From positions 160,001 to 224,000 of the forward strand of contig CAVUWD010000016.1 of NCBI GenBank assembly GCA_963745025.1: a DNA stretch of 64,000 nucleotides, written 5' to 3'. A program made the position numbers and the translations under genes. Within the stretch, counting starts at the first letter, position 1; each line of letters begins with the position of its first letter. Of the stretch, positions 11,070 to 28,857 are shown in pieces. The stretch is from an uncultured delta proteobacterium. Lineage in GTDB: Bacteria; Desulfobacterota; Binatia; JACPRU01. The notes under the pieces were generated by a model. That model ran no database searches, had not been told where the DNA came from, and was given only the letters and a program-made list of their open reading frames with translations.

Positions 11070-11741
11070 GTGATCCGTCTCTACCATGTCTCCAAGGTCT
11101 ATCCGCCGCGGTTCACCGCGTTGAGCGACGTCTCGCTCGCGATCGAGCCCGGCGAATTCGTGTTCCTGACGGGCCCGAGCGGGGCGGGCAAGACGACCCT
11201 GCTTCGGCTGCTGCTCGGCGCCGAGACGCCGACCGTGGGACAGGTCGTGATCGGTGGCAGGAACCTGGTGCGCCTCGGGCGCCGGGGGATCGCCAAGTTG
11301 CGCCGCTCGACGGGAATGGTGTTCCAGGACGCCAAGCTGCTTCCCGGGCTCCCAGTGCTCGACAACGTCGCATTGCCCGCCGAGGCGGCGGGCGAATCAT
11401 CGAAGGAGGCGCGCCGCAAGGCATTTGCGCTGCTCCGTGACCTCGGATTGAAGGACTTGGTGCGCCGCTACCCGCGTTCCTTGTCGGGGGGAGAGCAGCA
11501 GCGAGTGGCGCTCGCGCGTGCGCTCGTCAACGAGCCTGGGTTACTCCTCGCCGACGAGCCGACCGGCAACTTGGACGAAGAGTCGGCGCGCCGGGTCGTG
11601 GAGCTCATGGTGCGCGCCCATTCCGGAGGGGCGACGGTCGTGCTCGCAACACACGACCCGCAGCTACTGGGTGCGGTGTCCGGTCGGCAGATCACGCTGC
11701 GAGCGGGACACTTGGTCGACGGTGGGGCCGCGGCCGAATGA
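11070..11741 (+). CDS. ftsE: Cell division ATP-binding protein FtsE
   Basis: [37 protein letters not shown]; adjacent to ftsX. Confidence 0.92.
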   Translation: MIRLYHVSKVYPPRFTALSDVSLAIEPGEFVFLTGPSGAGKTTLLRLLLGAETPTVGQVVIGGRNLVRLGRRGIAKLRRSTGMVFQDAKLLPGLPVLDNVALPAEAAGESSKEARRKAFALLRDLGLKDLVRRYPRSLSGGEQQRVALARALVNEPGLLLADEPTGNLDEESARRVVELMVRAHSGGATVVLATHDPQLLGAVSGRQITLRAGHLVDGGAAAE

Positions 11742-12649
11742 GACGGTTCCACCCCTTCTATTTCGTCCGTCGCGCGCTCGCCAACCTGCGCGGCGCCCCG
11801 CGGCCCGCCGCGGTCACCGCTTCGACGATCGCGATCGCGATCTTCCTGTTTGGTGCGTTCTGGCTCTTCGGCGAGAACCTCTACCGTACGCTGGTCGGCT
11901 GGGCGGGGGAGGGAGATCCCCTGGTCGTCTACGCGAAGCGAGGCCTGCCGCCGGCGACGACCGAGGCGCTCGCCCGCCAGATCCAGACGCAGCCGGAGGT
12001 GGCGCGGGTGCGCGTGATTCCCCCCGCGGAGGGGCTGAAGGATCTCCGCCGCACGCTCGGCAGCGACGCCGACGTTCTCGAAGGAATCGATGCCGAGGTG
12101 CTGCCGGCCATCGTCTCGGTCGGGCTGCGCCGAACGACGCTCGACCCGACGGTCACGGAGCTGCTCGCCGCCCGCATCCGGCACTTCGAAGGCGTGGAGA
12201 CGGTCGATTCGCAGGTCGCGTGGATCGAGCGCTTCGCCAAGCTCGGCCGCTGGCTCATGTGGGTGGGCTTCGGCTGGGCCCTGATCCTTGGCTTCGGCGC
12301 GTTGCTGGTGATCGGGAACTCGGCGCGCTTGGCGGCGCTGACCCGCAAGGAGGAGATCGAGGTCCTGCGGCTCGTTGGAGCGTCGGAAGCCTTCATCGTT
12401 GTGCCGTTCTTCATCGAGGGTGCGATCCAGGGACTGGCCGGATCGCTGCTCGGGACGGGCGCGCTCGCGGCGGCGTTCTTCGCGCTCGAGCGATCCCTCG
12501 AGGATGGCTCGCTTCTCCCCTTGTTCACACCCTCGCTCGCGTTTCTCGAGCCGCGTTTGATCGGCGTTCTGCTCACGGCCGGGCCGCTTCTCGGAGCAAT
12601 CGGCAGCGCCGGCTCGGCGCGCCGCTACCTCCGCGGGGTGGAGCTGTGA
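11738..12649 (+). CDS. ftsX: Cell division permease FtsX
   Basis: EIEVLRLVGAS..FIVVPFFIEG, 4-TM layout. Confidence 0.92.
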   Translation: MRRFHPFYFVRRALANLRGAPRPAAVTASTIAIAIFLFGAFWLFGENLYRTLVGWAGEGDPLVVYAKRGLPPATTEALARQIQTQPEVARVRVIPPAEGLKDLRRTLGSDADVLEGIDAEVLPAIVSVGLRRTTLDPTVTELLAARIRHFEGVETVDSQVAWIERFAKLGRWLMWVGFGWALILGFGALLVIGNSARLAALTRKEEIEVLRLVGASEAFIVVPFFIEGAIQGLAGSLLGTGALAAAFFALERSLEDGSLLPLFTPSLAFLEPRLIGVLLTAGPLLGAIGSAGSARRYLRGVEL

Positions 12650-13758
12650 GGCCTGCTCGCGGGCTCTGGCTGCCGACACTCGCGACGCTCTCGGTAGCGA
12701 CCGCGATCGGCGCCGGAGACTCCGCCGATCGCCTGAAGGAAGTCGAGCAAGAAATCCAGCGGACCGAGGAAGAGGCGAAATCCATCGAAGCGCAAGCAGA
12801 AGGGGTGCTCGGCGAGATCGATACCGTCGATCGCTCGATCAGCGACCACGCGCGGCGCCTGCGCGATCTGACCACCGAGATCCGCGCGGCCCAGGCGCGC
12901 ATGGATGCCGTCGAACGCACGATTGCCAAGCTCGACGCCGAGGAACCGCGCCTGCACGCACGCTTCGTCGCGCGAGCCCGGGGTCTCTATCGTCTGCGCC
13001 AGCGAGGGCTCGCACCAATCGTCTTCCAAGCGCCGCGCGATTGGGGCGAGGCCACTCGCTACCAGCGAAGCCTCGAAGCGGTGCTCGCATACGACCACGC
13101 GCTCGCAGCGGAGCTGCGCCGCAATCGTGGCGAGGCGGCCGCCGCCCGGGAGCAGGCGGCTTCCGAAGCGGCGACGCTCGCGGCACGCCGCAAGGACAGC
13201 GCTCGGGAGCTCGAATCCCTCCGTGCCGAGCGGGCCAAGAAGCAAACGATACTCGCGTCGCTGCGAGGCGAAGGGCAGAAGCGCACGCGTCTTCTCGACG
13301 AGCTCAAATCCTCGGCGGAGAAGCTTCGGGAGCTGATCGAAAAAGAGGAAGCGTCAAAGACGCCGCCGTTCGAACCTCCCGCGGGTTCGGCCGTGCACAT
13401 GCGGTTCCCGATCCGCTCGGTGGGCGAGGCGGTCACCTCGGTCCGTAACGGCGTCGAGATCCGGGCTGCGGCAGGGACGTCGATTCAGGCGGTGAAAGCC
13501 GGACGCGTGGTCTTTGCCGGCTGGTTTGCCGGCTACGGCAAAATGGTGATTCTCGATCACGGCGACCATCTCTACACGGTGTACGGCTACGCGGAGAGTC
13601 TGCTCGTCGAGGCCGGCCGGGTCGTCGACGCCGGCGATCTCATCGCCACCGTCGGCGTGACCGGACCCGTCATCGCGCCGAGCCTCTACTTCGAGATTCG
13701 CGACCACGGCGTGCCGCGCGACCCGGCCTCCTACATCCCCGCGCTCGCACGGAAGTGA
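12646..13758 (+). CDS. envC: Murein hydrolase activator EnvC (coiled coil plus degenerate M23)
   Basis: Signal peptide, long coiled coil, GRVVFAGWFAGYGKMVILDHG, LYFEIR; zinc ligands absent (RNGVE, YGY). Confidence 0.88.
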   Translation: MRPARGLWLPTLATLSVATAIGAGDSADRLKEVEQEIQRTEEEAKSIEAQAEGVLGEIDTVDRSISDHARRLRDLTTEIRAAQARMDAVERTIAKLDAEEPRLHARFVARARGLYRLRQRGLAPIVFQAPRDWGEATRYQRSLEAVLAYDHALAAELRRNRGEAAAAREQAASEAATLAARRKDSARELESLRAERAKKQTILASLRGEGQKRTRLLDELKSSAEKLRELIEKEEASKTPPFEPPAGSAVHMRFPIRSVGEAVTSVRNGVEIRAAAGTSIQAVKAGRVVFAGWFAGYGKMVILDHGDHLYTVYGYAESLLVEAGRVVDAGDLIATVGVTGPVIAPSLYFEIRDHGVPRDPASYIPALARK

Positions 13759-13795
13759 GCGCAGTCGTCCTCACTCTCACGGGGCAGTGTAACGT

Positions 13796-14035
13796 CTCAG
13801 TCTCGGGTGCGAGCGCTCGAAATTCCTGATGCGCTGGATCTTCCGGTCGGCCCGTGCTCGGGTCGACCGGAAGATCCAGGCACCGCGCGGAAGCGCGGAA
13901 GGCAATAGACCAACTCGCGGGTTATTACCTCCCGCGCTCCGCGCGGTTGCGGTCGGTTGTGATCGACCCGAATACGGGCCGATCACAACCGACCGCGCTC
14001 TTCGTTGTCCCGAAGCACTCGCGGCGAAGACTGAG
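13796..14035. repeat. Three-hairpin cloverleaf palindromic element, copy A
   Basis: Closing IR ctcagtct/agactgag; hairpins at 13834-13879, 13882-13947 and 13949-13996. Homologous to 27320-27572. Confidence 0.9.
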
Positions 14036-14059
14036 CTCTCACCGAGCGTCACCATCGCG

Positions 14060-14097: not shown

Positions 14098-15582
14098 ATG
14101 CCCGATTCCGCCAGTGATCTGCTGGTCGCGCGCCGGCGGAAGCTCGAGGCGCTGCGTGCACGCGGCGGTGTTGCCTTTCCGAACGATTTCGTCCCCGATC
14201 GGACGACCGGCGAGGCACGCACGCGCTTCGGCGATGTGAGCGCCGAGCGTCTGGCGGATGCGAAAGAGACGGTGCGCCTCGCGGGACGCATCGTCGGCAT
14301 GCGCGACTTCGGCAAGGCGGCATTCTTTCACTTGCAAGATCGCAGTGGCCGGCTGCAGGTCTACGTCAAGCGCGAAGAGCTCGGCGAGGAAGGATTCGCG
14401 GTCTACCGGCACTGCGACGTCGGCGACGTCGTCGGTGTGGAAGGCGAGCTCTTTCGCACGCGAACCGGGGAGCTGACCCTGCTCGCGCGCCGCTTCCGAA
14501 TCCTCACCAAGTCGCTTCGGCCGCTTCCCGAGAAGTGGCACGGTCTCGCCGACACCGAGATCCGCTATCGGCAGCGCTACCTCGACCTGATCGCCAACCC
14601 GCAAGCCGCCGAGGTCTTCCGCAAGCGTGCCGCGATCATGCAGAAGATTCGCGACTACTTCGCCGCACGCGATTTCATCGAGGTCGAGACGCCGATGATG
14701 CAGCTCACCGCCGGGGGCGCCGCGGCCCGGCCCTTCGTCACCCACCACAATGCGCTGGATCTCGATCTCTACCTGCGCATCGCACCCGAGCTGTATCTGA
14801 AGCGTCTCGTGGTCGGCGGATTCGAGCGCGTCTTCGAGCTCTCCAGGGTGTTTCGCAACGAAGGCGTGTCGACGCAGCACAATCCCGAGTTCACGCTCCT
14901 CGAGTTCTACATGGCGTATGCGGATTACCACAGGCTCATGGAGATCACCGAAGAGCTCTTCTGCGAGCTCGCGCGGGAAGCGGCCGGCGGTCTCCGACTG
15001 CCGTGGGGAAAGCACGAGATCGATCTCACGCCCCCCTGGAAGCGGCTCACGCTGCGCCAGGCGGTGCGCAGCCACGCCGGAGCTCGTGACGCGGACCTCG
15101 CCTCGGAAGCGTCGCTACGGGCGTTTGCCGCGGGTCGGGGCCTGGCGCTCGACAAGAGCTGGGGCGCGGGCAGGATTCTTCTCGAGCTCTTCGAGGCCTT
15201 CGCCGAAGACAAGCTCGTCTCGCCGACCTTCGTGTTGGGATATCCGGTGGAGGTCTCACCTCTTGCGCGGCGCAATCCGGACGACCCCGAGATCACGGAC
15301 CGCTTCGAGCTCTACATCGCCGGACGGGAGATGGCGAACGCGTTTTCCGAGCTGAACGATCCCGACGACCAGCGCCGCCGTTTCGAAGCCCAGGCACGCG
15401 CCAAGGCCGCTGGCGACGAGGAGGCGCAGGAGATGGATGAGGACTTCGTGCTCGCGCTCGAGCACGCCATGCCGCCGACCGCGGGAGAAGGCGTGGGGGT
15501 CGATCGATTGGTGATGATGCTCACCAATCAGTCGTCGATCCGCGACGTGATCCTCTTTCCGCTGCTTCGCCCGCCTGCCTGA
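14098..15582 (+). CDS. lysS: Lysine--tRNA ligase (class II)
   Basis: LPEKWHGL, YRQRYLDL, EVETPMM, LRIAPELYLKRL, FRNEG, HNPEFT, IRDVILFP. Confidence 0.98.
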   Translation: MPDSASDLLVARRRKLEALRARGGVAFPNDFVPDRTTGEARTRFGDVSAERLADAKETVRLAGRIVGMRDFGKAAFFHLQDRSGRLQVYVKREELGEEGFAVYRHCDVGDVVGVEGELFRTRTGELTLLARRFRILTKSLRPLPEKWHGLADTEIRYRQRYLDLIANPQAAEVFRKRAAIMQKIRDYFAARDFIEVETPMMQLTAGGAAARPFVTHHNALDLDLYLRIAPELYLKRLVVGGFERVFELSRVFRNEGVSTQHNPEFTLLEFYMAYADYHRLMEITEELFCELAREAAGGLRLPWGKHEIDLTPPWKRLTLRQAVRSHAGARDADLASEASLRAFAAGRGLALDKSWGAGRILLELFEAFAEDKLVSPTFVLGYPVEVSPLARRNPDDPEITDRFELYIAGREMANAFSELNDPDDQRRRFEAQARAKAAGDEEAQEMDEDFVLALEHAMPPTAGEGVGVDRLVMMLTNQSSIRDVILFPLLRPPA

Positions 15583-24878: not shown

Positions 24879-26623
24879 AACTCTACCGCCGCCTGCTCGG
24901 CTACCTGCGGCCATACGTCTGGCCCCGCTTCACGCTGGCCGTGATCTGCATGGTGTTCTACAGCTCCACGAACGGCGTGATGCCGTATCTCGTGCGCAGC
25001 GTCTTCGACGACGTCTTCTTGCAGAAGAAGGAGTGGGCGCTGCGCGTGCTGCCGGTTGCGATCGTCACCGTCTTTCTGTTTCGCGCCGTGATGAGCTTCA
25101 ACCAGAGCTATCTGATGGAGTGGATCGGGCAGCACGTGATCGCCGACATCCGCAGTCAGCTGAACGCGCACTTCCAGCGCCTGTCGCTCTCGTTCTACAA
25201 CCGCACGCCGACCGGTACGCTGCTCTCGCGCATGACCAACGACGTCGAGCTCATGCGCAGCGCGCTCACGGATGCGGTCGCGTCGGTGATGAAAGACCTG
25301 ACGTCGCTCCTGGTGCTGCTCGCGGTCGCGTTTTTCATGGATTGGACGCTCGCGCTGATCGCCTTCGTCGCGTTCCCGCTCACGGTGCTGCCGATCTTGC
25401 GATTGTCACGGCGCTTGCGGAGGGTCACCCGCAAGGGTCAGGTGACGCTCGGCAACCTGGCGACGCTGCTCCAGGAGACGATTCAGGGGAACCGCGTCGT
25501 CAAGGCCTTCGGCATGGAGGACTACGAAATCCGCCGCTTCGATGCGGAGAGCGAGCGGCTCGTCGGGCTGTACATGAGGGCGGCACGCATCAAGGCCTTC
25601 ACCACGCCGATGATGGAAGTGCTCGCCTCGTTCGGCATCGCCGGAGTCGTCTGGTACGGCGGCTCGAGCGTGATGGCCGGTGGGCGCACGCCCGGCTCGT
25701 TCATGGCCTTTCTCACGGCGATGCTGCTGCTCTACGATCCGTTCAAGGGTCTGACCAAGACCAACAACGTCGTGCAGCAGGGACTGGCGGGGGCGAGCCG
25801 CATCTTCGAGATGCTCGACCAAGCGAGCGACGTGGTGGAACGGCCCACGGCGACCGCTCTGCAGGGCTTTCGCGAGGGCATCCGCCTCGAAGACGTGACC
25901 TTCCGTTACGAGGCGGAGCCGGTGCTCCGCGAGGTGAACCTGGAGATTCGCCGTGGCGAGGCCGTCGCGCTGGTCGGCCGCAGCGGCTCGGGCAAGAGCA
26001 CGCTGGCGGATCTGATTCCACGCTTCTACGACGTCACAGGAGGTCGGATCACGGTCGACGGACGGGATGTGCGCGACCTGACGCTGGCATCGCTTCGTGC
26101 CGAGATCGCGATCGTCACGCAGTTCACCTTTCTCTTCAACGACACCGTGCGAACCAACATCGCCTACGGCGACGTCGGCACCTCGCTGGAGCGGATCGAA
26201 GCCGCGGCGCGCGCCGCCAACGCGCACGACTTCATTTGCGAGCTGCCGCAGGGCTACGACACGGTGATCGGTGAGCTAGGCGTCAAGCTTTCCGGAGGGC
26301 AGCGCCAGCGCGTGGCGATCGCACGCGCTCTCCTCAAGAACGTGCCGATCCTGATCCTCGACGAGGCGACCTCGGCTCTCGATAACGAGTCCGAGCGGCT
26401 GGTCCAAGAGGCGATCGAACGGCTGATGGCGGGTCGCACGACGCTGGTCATCGCCCACCGCCTCTCGACCATCCGCAACGCCGACCGGATCGCGGTTCTC
26501 GACCGCGGGCGCATCATCGAGGAAGGGACGCATGCGGAGCTCCTCGATCGCGGCGGCGAGTATCGCCGGCTCTACGACATGCAGTTCCGCGACGAGCCCC
26601 GCGCCGCGGTGGCCGGGGAATGA
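24875..26623 (+). CDS. msbA: Lipid A flippase MsbA
   Basis: YRRLLGYLRPY, ABC TM domain, GRSGSGKST, LSGGQRQR, LDEATSALD. Confidence 0.93.
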   Translation: MKLYRRLLGYLRPYVWPRFTLAVICMVFYSSTNGVMPYLVRSVFDDVFLQKKEWALRVLPVAIVTVFLFRAVMSFNQSYLMEWIGQHVIADIRSQLNAHFQRLSLSFYNRTPTGTLLSRMTNDVELMRSALTDAVASVMKDLTSLLVLLAVAFFMDWTLALIAFVAFPLTVLPILRLSRRLRRVTRKGQVTLGNLATLLQETIQGNRVVKAFGMEDYEIRRFDAESERLVGLYMRAARIKAFTTPMMEVLASFGIAGVVWYGGSSVMAGGRTPGSFMAFLTAMLLLYDPFKGLTKTNNVVQQGLAGASRIFEMLDQASDVVERPTATALQGFREGIRLEDVTFRYEAEPVLREVNLEIRRGEAVALVGRSGSGKSTLADLIPRFYDVTGGRITVDGRDVRDLTLASLRAEIAIVTQFTFLFNDTVRTNIAYGDVGTSLERIEAAARAANAHDFICELPQGYDTVIGELGVKLSGGQRQRVAIARALLKNVPILILDEATSALDNESERLVQEAIERLMAGRTTLVIAHRLSTIRNADRIAVLDRGRIIEEGTHAELLDRGGEYRRLYDMQFRDEPRAAVAGE

Positions 26624-27294
26624 AGGGAAGCCGCCGTGCGCGGATTCGGGTTGCGTTTCTTGGGTTCGCCGCCCGCTGCCTCTACGGGCTGGTCAAGAAC
26701 ACCGTGCGCCCGGTGGTGGGTCCGGACGCTCGCGAGGTGCTCGCGGCCTTCGAGAAGAACGAGCGCGTCGTGATCGCGTTCTGGCACGGTCAACTGGCGA
26801 TGCTGCAGGCGGCGTACCGCGGTCGCGGTGCCGGGATTTGCGTTCAAGTGAGCCATCACAGCGACGGTGAGATCATCACCCGTGCCGTCCGTCCGTTCGG
26901 CATCCGCGCGGCGCGCGGCTCGGCCACGCGCGGCGGACTGGCGAGCGTGCGCGAGATGCTCGAAGCGCATCGCCAGGGCTACGACCTGGCTCTCGCGCCC
27001 GATGGCCCGCGCGGTCCGATTCACCGTGCCAAGCCAGGAGCGATCCGGCTCGCGCAAGCGACGGGGGCGCGTCTTTTTCCCGTGGCGTGCGCTCCACGAC
27101 GGGCATTGGTGTTCCGAAGCTGGGACCGCTTCATTGTGCCGCTGCCGTTCACGCGGGTTTATTACGTCGTCGGGACGCCGCTGTCGGTTCCGCACGGCGT
27201 CGATGCGGAAGCGATCGAACGCGCGAGACGGACTCTTGAAGAGGAGCTCTGCCGCGCCACCTTGGAAGCCGAGCGGCGCGCCGGGCGGCGGTGA
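26620..27294 (+). CDS. lpxJ: DUF374 lysophospholipid acyltransferase (LpxJ-like)
   Basis: AFWHG, S.HSDGE, RGSATRGG, APDGPRGP, SWDRF.VPLPF. Confidence 0.85.
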   Translation: MKGSRRARIRVAFLGFAARCLYGLVKNTVRPVVGPDAREVLAAFEKNERVVIAFWHGQLAMLQAAYRGRGAGICVQVSHHSDGEIITRAVRPFGIRAARGSATRGGLASVREMLEAHRQGYDLALAPDGPRGPIHRAKPGAIRLAQATGARLFPVACAPRRALVFRSWDRFIVPLPFTRVYYVVGTPLSVPHGVDAEAIERARRTLEEELCRATLEAERRAGRR

Positions 27295-27319
27295 TGAGGA
27301 CCGAGGCATCGTCACGTTC

Positions 27320-27572
27320 GCATCCCCTCACTCTTTGCCTCGAGCGCTCGAGATTCCGAAAGCGCTGGATTCTCCGGTCGGCCCGTACACGGGTCGACCG
27401 GAAAATCCAGCCACCGCGCGGAGCGCGGAACGCAATAACCCGCGAGTTGGTCTATTGCCTTCCGCGCTCTGCGCGGTTGCGGTCGGTTGTGATCGACCCG
27501 AGTACGGACCGATCACAACCGACCGCGCTCTCCGCCGTTTCGATTCATTCGAGGCGAAAACTGAGGGGATGC
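27320..27572. repeat. Three-hairpin cloverleaf palindromic element, copy B (middle hairpin inverted)
   Basis: Closing IR gcatcccctca/tgaggggatgc; hairpins at 27365-27410, 27413-27477 and 27479-27526. Confidence 0.9.
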
Positions 27573-27618
27573 CCACCCTCGTGCGTTTCGGGTGCGGCCG
27601 CGAGGCTGCGCTGAGGAC

Positions 27619-28857
27619 ATGTACGCGCTCTACAACCTACTGCTCGCGGTGCCTGGGCTCGCGGTGGCCCCGGCGCTCCGGCTGCCGCGCTTCCGTGCGC
27701 ATCGGGAGCGGCTCGGAGTGTATGCGCCCGAGCTCCTCGAGCGAGTGCGCGGGCGGAAGGTGCTGTGGCTTCACAACGCCTCGATCGGAGAGCTCAAGGC
27801 GTCTCGACCGCTTCTGCGCCGCCTCCGTGAGGAGCTCGTCGAGTGGCGAATCGTCCTCTCCACGACGAGCATCACGGGGCGCGACCTGGCACGAGAGCTG
27901 GCCGAGGCGGACGGTGCGGTGCTGCTGCCGCTCGACTTCCCGGCATCCGTCGAGCGTGCCGTCGATGCGATCGCGCCTTCGCTCTTCGTGTTCACCGAAA
28001 CCGAGATCTGGCCGAACTTGCTGCGCGCGCTTCGCCGGCGGGGCGTTCCCGCCGTGCTCCTCTCCGGACGCGTGTCGCCTCGCTCGTTCCGTCGCTACCT
28101 CTGGATTCGTTCCTTTCTGCGGCGCGTGCTGCAAGACGTGGCGTTGTTGGGCATGCAGAGCGAGGCGGAGGCGGAGCGCATTCGCGCGCTCGGCGCGCCG
28201 CCGGAGCGCGTGCGGGTCACGGGCAGCTTGAAGCTCGAGGCGATCGCCGAGCCGCGGGCGCTGGCGATCGACAGTCCGCCGGGATTCCTCTGGATCGCGG
28301 CCTCGACGCACGCCGGCGAGGAAGATGTCTGCGCGCGCGTGTTCGGTCGGTTGCGCGAGCGGTTCGCCGGGCTCCGGCTGCTGCTGGCTCCTCGGCATCT
28401 CGAGCGGTTGCCGGCGGTGGAAAGCCTCCTGCGCGCGCAAGGGCTCGATTTCATCCGACGCACGGATCTGCGCGAGAACCGTTGGACGGGCGAGCCTCCG
28501 GTGTTGCTGCTCGACACGCTCGGAGAGCTCGCCGGCCTCTACGCGGGAGCCGCCGCGGCATTCGTCGGCGGCACGCTCGCTCGCGTGGGTGGGCACAATC
28601 TCCTCGAGCCGGCCCGAGTCGGTGTGCCGGTGCTCTACGGACCGCACGTGGAGAACGTCGCGGCGCTCGCCGACGTGCTCGATTCGAGCGGCGGCGGATT
28701 CCGCGTCGCCGACGAAGCGGATCTCGCCGCGAAGCTCGAGGCGCTGCTCGACGATCCCGAGCTCTGCGCGCGTACGGGACGCGCGGCGCAGGCAACGGTT
28801 GCATCGGTCGGAAGCGTCGAGGCGAGTCTGCGCGCCGCGCTCGAATGTCTGGCGTGA
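27619..28857 (+). CDS. waaA: Kdo transferase WaaA
   Basis: WLHNASIGE, ETEIWPN, AASTHAGEE, APRHLER, LDTLGEL, GGHNLLEPA. Confidence 0.95.
   Translation: MYALYNLLLAVPGLAVAPALRLPRFRAHRERLGVYAPELLERVRGRKVLWLHNASIGELKASRPLLRRLREELVEWRIVLSTTSITGRDLARELAEADGAVLLPLDFPASVERAVDAIAPSLFVFTETEIWPNLLRALRRRGVPAVLLSGRVSPRSFRRYLWIRSFLRRVLQDVALLGMQSEAEAERIRALGAPPERVRVTGSLKLEAIAEPRALAIDSPPGFLWIAASTHAGEEDVCARVFGRLRERFAGLRLLLAPRHLERLPAVESLLRAQGLDFIRRTDLRENRWTGEPPVLLLDTLGELAGLYAGAAAAFVGGTLARVGGHNLLEPARVGVPVLYGPHVENVAALADVLDSSGGGFRVADEADLAAKLEALLDDPELCARTGRAAQATVASVGSVEASLRAALECLA

Follow-up and report, generated by a model that had tools for sequence, protein, structure and literature searches.

The 64-kb stretch of DNA analysed here (the window) contains two copies, A and B, of a repeat of about 250 bp. 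Each copy carries three hairpins (H1, H2 and H3), and the middle one reads in opposite directions in the two copies. How did one hairpin come to be inverted between repeats whose other parts keep their orientation, and does the inversion serve any purpose? A first-pass annotation of the window had offered two answers: that the element propagates through a nicked-hairpin or strand-displacement intermediate, or that H2 is an invertible micro-switch placed upstream of lysS and waaA.

Copies A and B differ by an exact inversion of a hairpin tip

A script check bore out the exact reverse complementarity that had been claimed for H2 (13893-13926 against 27434-27467) and lengthened the match by one base, to 35 rather than 34 nt. 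Outside this stretch the two copies are co-oriented, with a mean column identity of 88% over 241 columns, and in the copy alignment their mismatches concentrate in the H2 tip. With this tip masked, copy B scored 187.4 bits against the family profile in the forward orientation versus 55.1 bits in reverse, in agreement with the annotation's statement that H1, H3 and the surroundings keep their orientation. Aligned with each other, the two tips scored 24 when one was reverse-complemented and 7 in the forward direction. Chance as the source of the match is ruled out by 35 exact bases within a co-oriented repeat.

As single-stranded DNA, each copy folds into a closing stem and three tandem hairpins. 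The predicted folding energies are -99.7 kcal/mol for copy A and -100.5 kcal/mol for copy B (z = -14.1 and -14.3), and 0 of 200 shuffles were as stable. H2 has an outer stem (CCGCGCG/CGCGCGG) and an inner stem (GCGCGGAAGGCAATA/TATTGCCTTCCGCGC) with a small internal loop between them, and ends in a tip, which reads ATAGACC-loop-GGGTTAT in "A" tips and ATAACCC-loop-TGGTCTAT in "B" tips. The annotation had described an asymmetric core in H2. An asymmetric tip does exist, but only about 15 nt (GACCAACTCGCGGGT in A, ACCCGCGAGTTGGTC in B) and the stem mismatch positions are truly asymmetric, most of the 34-nt stretch being palindromic inner stem that is identical in either reading direction. The C/C stem mismatch of copy B is the mirror image of an arm combination with AAGGC on the left and GCGTT on the right; these arm variants each occur separately in A-type relatives, and both together in no A-type copy.

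In both copies the H1 and H3 tips are reverse complements of each other over 20 nt (TCGGCCCGTACTCGGGTCGA in H1). Loop variants also match across the two hairpins, with GATT in H1 of one sub-family and AATC in H3 of another copy, which suggests that the H1/H3 tip module has been exchanged or flipped between them.

Table 1. Coordinates of the two MITE copies and their hairpins in the window
Feature	Position	Strand	Description
MITE copy A, ~254 bp	13789..14042	+	nhmmer match C16:173797-174019, 220 bits
Copy A ends			left GTAACGTCTCAGTCT; right ...AAGACTGAG, then diverged terminus
Copy A hairpin H1	13834..13879	+	21-bp stem, loop TGCT
Copy A hairpin H2	13883..13946	+	long bipartite stem, A-type tip
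Copy A inverted-match stretch	13892..13926	+	reverse complement of 27434-27468; core GACCAACTCGCGGGT
Copy A hairpin H3	13949..13996	+	loop AATA; 20-nt tip reverse-complementary to H1 tip module
MITE copy B, 253 bp	27320..27572	+	terminal inverted repeat GCATCCCCTCACTCTTTGCCTCGA / TCGAGGCGAAAACTGAGGGGATGC
Copy B hairpin H1	27365..27410	+	loop TACA; co-oriented with copy A
Copy B hairpin H2	27414..27476	+	B-type tip
Copy B inverted segment	27434..27468	+	35 nt, reverse complement of 13892-13926; core ACCCGCGAGTTGGTC
Copy B hairpin H3	27479..27526	+	loop AGTA; co-oriented with copy A

The repeat is a non-autonomous element of IS66 family type

BLAST and an nhmmer profile search of the genome to which the window belongs (G000; 5.65 Mb, 20 contigs, ~66% G+C) located the repeat at 100 non-overlapping loci, nearly full-length at 57 of these; within the window, copies A and B are the only ones. 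As this assembly is 92.65% complete with 7.6% contamination, all copy counts are minimum values, and a few contigs possibly belong to another organism. (The seven other family-level genomes are 65-84% complete.) Among 80 loci from the matches listed (88 stretches), the element was present in at least 4, all from one MAG. The hairpin-tip motif had 99 matches inside element loci and 55 outside, the latter chance-like, GC-rich and without the characteristic loops; hairpin tips are essentially confined to element loci.

The ends of the element, GTAATGCCTCAGTCTTCGC and its inverted complement, are alike in 16 of 19 bases to the ends, GTAAGGCCTCAGTCTCCGT, of a 1885-bp insertion sequence (IS) in the same genome; the outermost bases of copies A and B have themselves diverged from the family ends. 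Three full copies of the IS are present, among them C19:80227-82111 and within C6:484411-488185. Its open reading frame (ORF), for a transposase of 468-490 amino acids, carries DDE_Tnp_IS66 (131 bits) and zf-IS66, and a fourth, partial DDE_Tnp_IS66 match (78.6 bits) lies on contig C2. The IS copies at these two places are flanked by an 8-bp duplication (AACGATCG). An exact direct repeat of at least 8 nt likewise flanks 16 of 40 full-length copies of the shorter element (for example, GGCGGGAG, GATCGTCC and TTCCCTCCG), compared with a mean of 1.7 of 40 when the flanks of different copies were paired; copies A and B are without a clear target duplication (7 nt and 6 nt).

Inverted repeats starting with GTAA and 8-bp duplications are typical of the IS66 family, which includes a single-ORF, ISBst12-like group. 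The element shares with IS66-family ISs and MITEs its GTAA-type termini, 8-9-bp target duplications, small non-coding size and presence/absence polymorphism. It differs from the IS in its three-hairpin interior, which is without similarity to the IS beyond the ~19 terminal bases. The IS66-like ends and target duplications, together with the empty sites described below, indicate that the element is a ~250-bp non-autonomous MITE of IS66 family type, and we infer from the similarity of the ends that it is mobilised in trans by an IS66-family transposase. REP/BIME, ERIC, Correia and RIME sequences are also short, GC-rich, hairpin-forming, intergenic and multi-copy repeats, and the MITE resembles them in each of these respects. 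It is set apart from them by its IS66-like ends and target duplications, by tips that occur essentially inside the element only, and by the outcome of an Rfam scan of the whole 64-kb window, which returned no family match.

Two features of the IS copies themselves were also observed. At C6:484411-488185, two 1885-bp copies lie head to tail with 8 bp (CTTCTGGA) between them and the same 8 bp after the second; this pair is a tandem dimer with a common target duplication. Inside the C19 copy, upstream of the transposase, is a 105-amino-acid ORF (L060:684-1001) whose DUF6788 score of 27.0 bits falls just below the 27.2 cut-off, and which is a candidate small accessory gene for ISs of this group.

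Both tip orientations are present across the genome

The element is quasi-palindromic overall, the H1 tip being the reverse complement of the H3 tip, so the orientation of each copy had to be checked before its H2 tip could be scored. Orientation was taken as secure at a margin of at least 50 bits with the tip masked. Among the 39 full-length copies that were securely oriented, 31 carry an A tip and 8 a B tip, and all 8 B copies prefer their assigned orientation by 50-135 bits. Before this filter, the 57 near-full copies comprised 35 A, 8 B and 14 others, the last with the tip either of another kind or deleted, or with a large insertion. The four A copies that were dropped belong to one sub-family, and their margins did not reach 40 bits; also excluded from the tally was a ninth B copy, C2:3461-3739, which is split by an insertion. 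A second apparent "exact flip/flop pair", with C8:197664 and C2:199053 on one side and C11:92733 and C8:223543 on the other, did not stand up: its 82-nt exact reverse-complement match runs into H1, which indicates that two truncated copies had been given the wrong orientation by nhmmer, and they were excluded.

The annotation had asked that H2 be scored in all genomic copies and had named a balanced mix of orientations as support for a mechanistic flip/flop. The inversion turns out not to be a one-off, being present in 8 of 39 copies, but the mix is not balanced: the ratio is 31:8 and clusters by sub-family. Independent flips of H1 and H3 in other copies, also raised there, do occur. Among 70 H1 tips, a TACT-like loop is present in 67, the loop is palindromic and so not orientable in 2, and a single tip is flipped (C12:80446); among 69 H3 tips, two are flipped, namely those of C11:74156 and, relative to its sister copy C11:92733, of C8:223543. 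Each of these flipped H1 and H3 tips, once reverse-complemented, matches the tip of its sub-family exactly or with one mismatch. In a genome of the same genus (G001), 12 H2 tips could be scored by eye, as 8 A, 3 B and 1 other, and B tips of type CTCGGCGCTGG are found in several G000 copies as well as in 3 G001 copies.

Further variation was seen among the hairpins. In C12:80446-80665, the H1 and H2 tips are both inverted relative to the sub-family, with H3 and the hairpin order unchanged. One sub-family of ~8-10 copies (e.g., C11:88104, C16:566015, C18:2221 and C19:140299) has a non-palindromic H2 tip, AATACCCAAGGCGCGGCTCGAACCG, in a single orientation by eye; in another the H2 tip is deleted, leaving GCGGAATGCGGCTC. 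C5:173267-173509 and C16:85422-85664 have an identical 31-nt addition in the H2 tip, consisting of a perfect 10-bp hairpin (GGTGCTGTCC-TAAG-GGACAGCACC) and flanked by an 11-nt direct repeat (GTGTCGAGGGT), which looks like a template-switch-type or nested-insertion event that has since been copied.

H2 has been inverted repeatedly

We built a maximum-likelihood tree of the 57 copies with the H2 tip excluded and placed the A and B states on it. Five A/B changes are needed, of which at least 4 are forced by well-supported branches; this tree of 250-bp repeats is weak, as it does not resolve 26 of its 54 inner branches, and any recombination between copies would make the number of changes too high. 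An approximately unbiased (AU) test rejects the 8 B copies as a single clade (p = 0.003). At least 4-5 independent inversions of H2 are required, and a single origin is rejected. The state is also partly inherited, as only 12 of 500 label shuffles required as few changes.

Copy B falls in an unresolved group with A-type copies that have the same loop, AACTCGCG, and its tip, when reverse-complemented, matches 31 of 33 bases of the tip of an A-type copy of its own group, C16:732793. One B copy, C11:414192, is placed in the main clade and has a tip like the B tips of another clade (30 of 34 bases to C12:80446), and reverse-complementing that tip does not yield the tips of the A-type copies that the tree groups with it. 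The foreign-like tip of C11:414192 means that exchange between copies also takes place or inflates the count.

Insertion sites are polymorphic and orientation is kept at two fixed loci

Copy A is flanked by an M23 peptidase gene (11518-13758) and lysS (14098-15582). Copy B sits in a row msbA-DUF374-waaA, with the DUF374 gene (26620-27294) on one side and the Kdo-transferase gene, waaA (27592-28857), on the other. The names lysS and waaA given in the annotation hold, by NCBIfam for lysS (646 bits; cut-off, 427.6) and by Pfam for the Kdo transferase. There is no recombinase among the named immediate neighbours (M23 peptidase, lysS, msbA, DUF374 and waaA). By a rough GC3-based ORF filter, 54 of the 57 copies are intergenic. 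Relative to the neighbouring genes, the same rough filter placed 20 of the 57 copies as same/same, 12 as opposite/opposite and 9 and 8 as the two mixed arrangements, with a neighbour not found for the remaining 8. The presence of copies in every arrangement argues against a directional regulatory role.

The site between DUF374 and waaA is empty in G001, where the two flanks abut, and in L151, an 88%-identical metagenome relative. L150, an independent 13.5-kb metagenome contig whose DUF374 protein is 97% identical, has the element at the same site and in the same B orientation; it is joined there to the unique DUF374 flank and differs from copy B by several single-nucleotide polymorphisms (SNPs), one of them in the loop. 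(L150 and L151 were the two compared among 20 metagenome loci, the rest being at most 79% identical.) The shared B state in an independent contig indicates that copy B is not an artefact of this assembly and that the state is stable between strains. The proposal of a directional site upstream of lysS and waaA fares poorly on these data, given the lack of a consistent copy arrangement and the empty DUF374-waaA site in G001 and L151.

Ten G001 insertions could be mapped to G000 by both flanks; 7 of these sites are empty in G000 and 3 are filled. Of the filled sites L042, L046 and L054, the first two were aligned. This yielded one clear insertion common to both genomes (L042 / C13:2397xx), at which the H2 orientation is kept; the members of the pair L046 / C11:1191xx are too different to interpret. 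In public sequencing runs, at best 0.35 of the sampled words matched. Four runs were mapped, giving only short Logan contigs, and none of these joined an H2 tip to a unique flank. Three joints that appeared to connect opposite strands (27405/27420/27421 to 27468/27474; one contig each in X1, X3 and X2) were rejected as contigs of other copies or organisms.

Tip inversion is probably mediated by the hairpin's own inverted repeats

We favor, as the likely explanation, a rare inversion of the tip mediated by its flanking inverted repeats, through template switching or recombination between the arms, with the resulting state inherited through transposition. H2 presents a ~25-bp imperfect stem around the ~15-nt asymmetric tip, across which a replicating polymerase would switch template and then switch back; equivalently, the two arms would recombine. 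Either event would invert the segment between the stem arms and preserve its length and the stem, only the tip and the stem mismatches being mirrored. Such a flip would be rare and apparently neutral (neutrality is an assumption), and a flipped copy that transposed would pass its state on, allowing both orientations to coexist in the family. The inversions lie within the arms, keep their length, recur, are inherited and are commonest in H2, whose stem is the longest and whose loop is the largest of the three; this is the signature of inverted-repeat-mediated spacer inversion. The data show how the element is built, its signs of mobility, the exactness of the inversion, its recurrence and its stability at one locus; we infer the molecular mechanism, the neutrality and the identity of the mobilising transposase. 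The annotation's alternative of an inversion between inverted repeats is thus upheld as a true inversion bounded by stem arms (35 nt), but not as a programmed switch.

Minute inversions in plastid hairpins were reportedly described by Kelchner and Wendel in 1996. Minute or small inversions are reportedly common in plastid DNA hairpins (PMC6342102), and template switching is given as a cause of inverted-repeat spacer inversion in PMC8604942, with short template switching and inversion of hairpin loops or inverted-repeat spacers treated also in PMC5453318. Template switching is further described, in PMC8794818, as yielding both instantaneous compensatory changes and loop inversions in hairpins. 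The MITE hairpins agree with template-switch loop inversion in that the segment is bounded by stem arms, length and stem are kept, and homoplasy and many compensatory double changes are present: 97.2% of stem cells are paired, and double changes occur in 22 of 51 pairs versus 4-9 in slid controls. They differ in that the inversions are seen across ~60 paralogous copies of a bacterial mobile element in one genome rather than among orthologues, and in their length, at least 29-35 nt including the inner stem compared with the mostly 4-nt loops of the rRNA inversions in PMC8794818. A literature search, mostly at abstract level, found no published description of such loop inversion in bacterial MITEs.

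A reversed tip could also be acquired from another copy. In ectopic gene conversion, a copy in the opposite orientation would pair through the near-palindromic arms and donate its tip, with no inversion in place. The ~100 copies lie on both strands, their stem arms are common to the copies and nearly palindromic, and exchange fits the foreign-like tip of C11:414192 better than an in-place flip does; the occurrence of one tip module in H1 and, reverse-complemented, in H3, with the matching loops GATT and AATC, likewise suggests exchange. However, the tip of copy B is the reverse complement of its own group's A tips, for which an in-place flip suffices, and no donor with a longer diagnostic tract was found. 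We regard conversion as unlikely; template switching, arm-to-arm recombination and conversion by an opposite copy would leave much the same trace in sequence. Flipping could instead accompany transposition itself, with a strand switch at H2 during copy-out synthesis producing a flipped daughter, so that orientation changes at insertion. Several DDE families use replicative copy-out, most insertions are recent, as the 7 empty sites of 10 attest, and orientation is stable at fixed loci (L150 versus the window, and the insertion common to G000 and G001). Yet a change at insertion and one after insertion would look alike and the fixed loci compared number two, and we consider this route improbable. 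The compensatory pattern of the stems could, instead of template switching, mean selection for structure and hence function. That the MITE is selected for its DNA or RNA structure, with the H2 tip a directional binding site toggled in living cells, strikes us as quite improbable; if true, each insertion would be a tiny heritable two-state element beside host genes. In a milder version, the flip may be made by the IS66-type copy-out reaction itself, and would then report on a transposition pathway that is still poorly understood.

Three further explanations conflict with the placement of the hairpin inside the element, with its IS66-type termini and target duplications, and with the clade-linked 31:8 ratio, the empty sites and the independent contig. 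In a programmed micro-switch, H2 would be an invertible protein-binding site flipped by a recombinase to regulate neighbouring genes such as waaA or lysS, and the tip is indeed asymmetric and flanked by inverted repeats, with both states present in the genome. Two strains have the same state at locus B, however, and relatives lack the element there; the copies have no consistent orientation relative to neighbouring genes; H1 and H3, with their 4-nt loops, flip too; and known invertible segments are generally far longer than the 15-35 nt at issue. A switch of this kind seems very unlikely. In the flip/flop of adeno-associated virus (AAV), terminal hairpins of a linear single-stranded genome invert at every round, the two forms arise in roughly equal proportions, and the inversion takes in all of the B-C arm region. 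The MITE resembles AAV and parvovirus inverted terminal repeats formally, as an imperfect palindrome in two mutually reverse-complementary configurations, and hairpin-loop priming in models of parvovirus replication is mentioned in PMC8794818. But H2 is internal to a chromosomal element and not at the terminus of a linear replicon; the inverted-repeat ends and 8-9-bp target duplications, shared with the IS66-family relative, are typical of DDE-transposase insertion; the orientation is heritable, with the same B state in two strains, and clusters by clade; and the tip alone inverts, not a whole multi-arm palindrome. The nicked-hairpin or strand-displacement propagation proposed for the element, with flip/flop isomers made in every round, is accordingly hard to credit. 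An assembly artefact, in which the palindromic stem was threaded wrongly or two copies were mixed, is just as implausible. The element is repetitive and breaks short-read metagenome contigs, but L150, with its SNPs, independently joins the B orientation to the unique DUF374 flank, B-type copies occur at 8 loci in G000 and 3 in G001, and perfect arm stretches of at most ~15 nt should be shorter than the usual assembly words.

Implications for hairpin-bearing repeats

Under the favored reading, the apparent flip/flop is a neat but commonplace kind of mutation in an IS66-type MITE whose host is an uncultured bacterium of soil or sediment. IS66-type MITEs and hairpin-loop inversion are both known already; our literature search, mostly at abstract level, brought up neither this element nor any count of flips over the paralogous hairpins of a bacterial MITE. 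With ~60 paralogous copies of three hairpins in one genome, the family amounts to a natural experiment in which loop inversions can be counted directly: at least 4-5 events in 39 copies for the long-stem H2, compared with 1 flipped tip in 70 for H1 and 2 in 69 for H3, whose loops are short. Such counts can be compared with the compensatory changes in the stems; for RNA hairpins, a connection between the two has been proposed. For annotators, paralogous repeats may differ by exact micro-inversions that alignment programs score as clusters of substitutions, and quasi-palindromic elements are easily mis-oriented, giving false flips, as did the two provisional ones here.

At the locus of copy B, the MITE places ~250 bp of strongly structured DNA between DUF374 and waaA (26620-28857), two genes that in forms without the element are separated by ~20 bp (G001) or nearly abut (L151). 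The insertion could possibly affect co-transcription of DUF374 and waaA.
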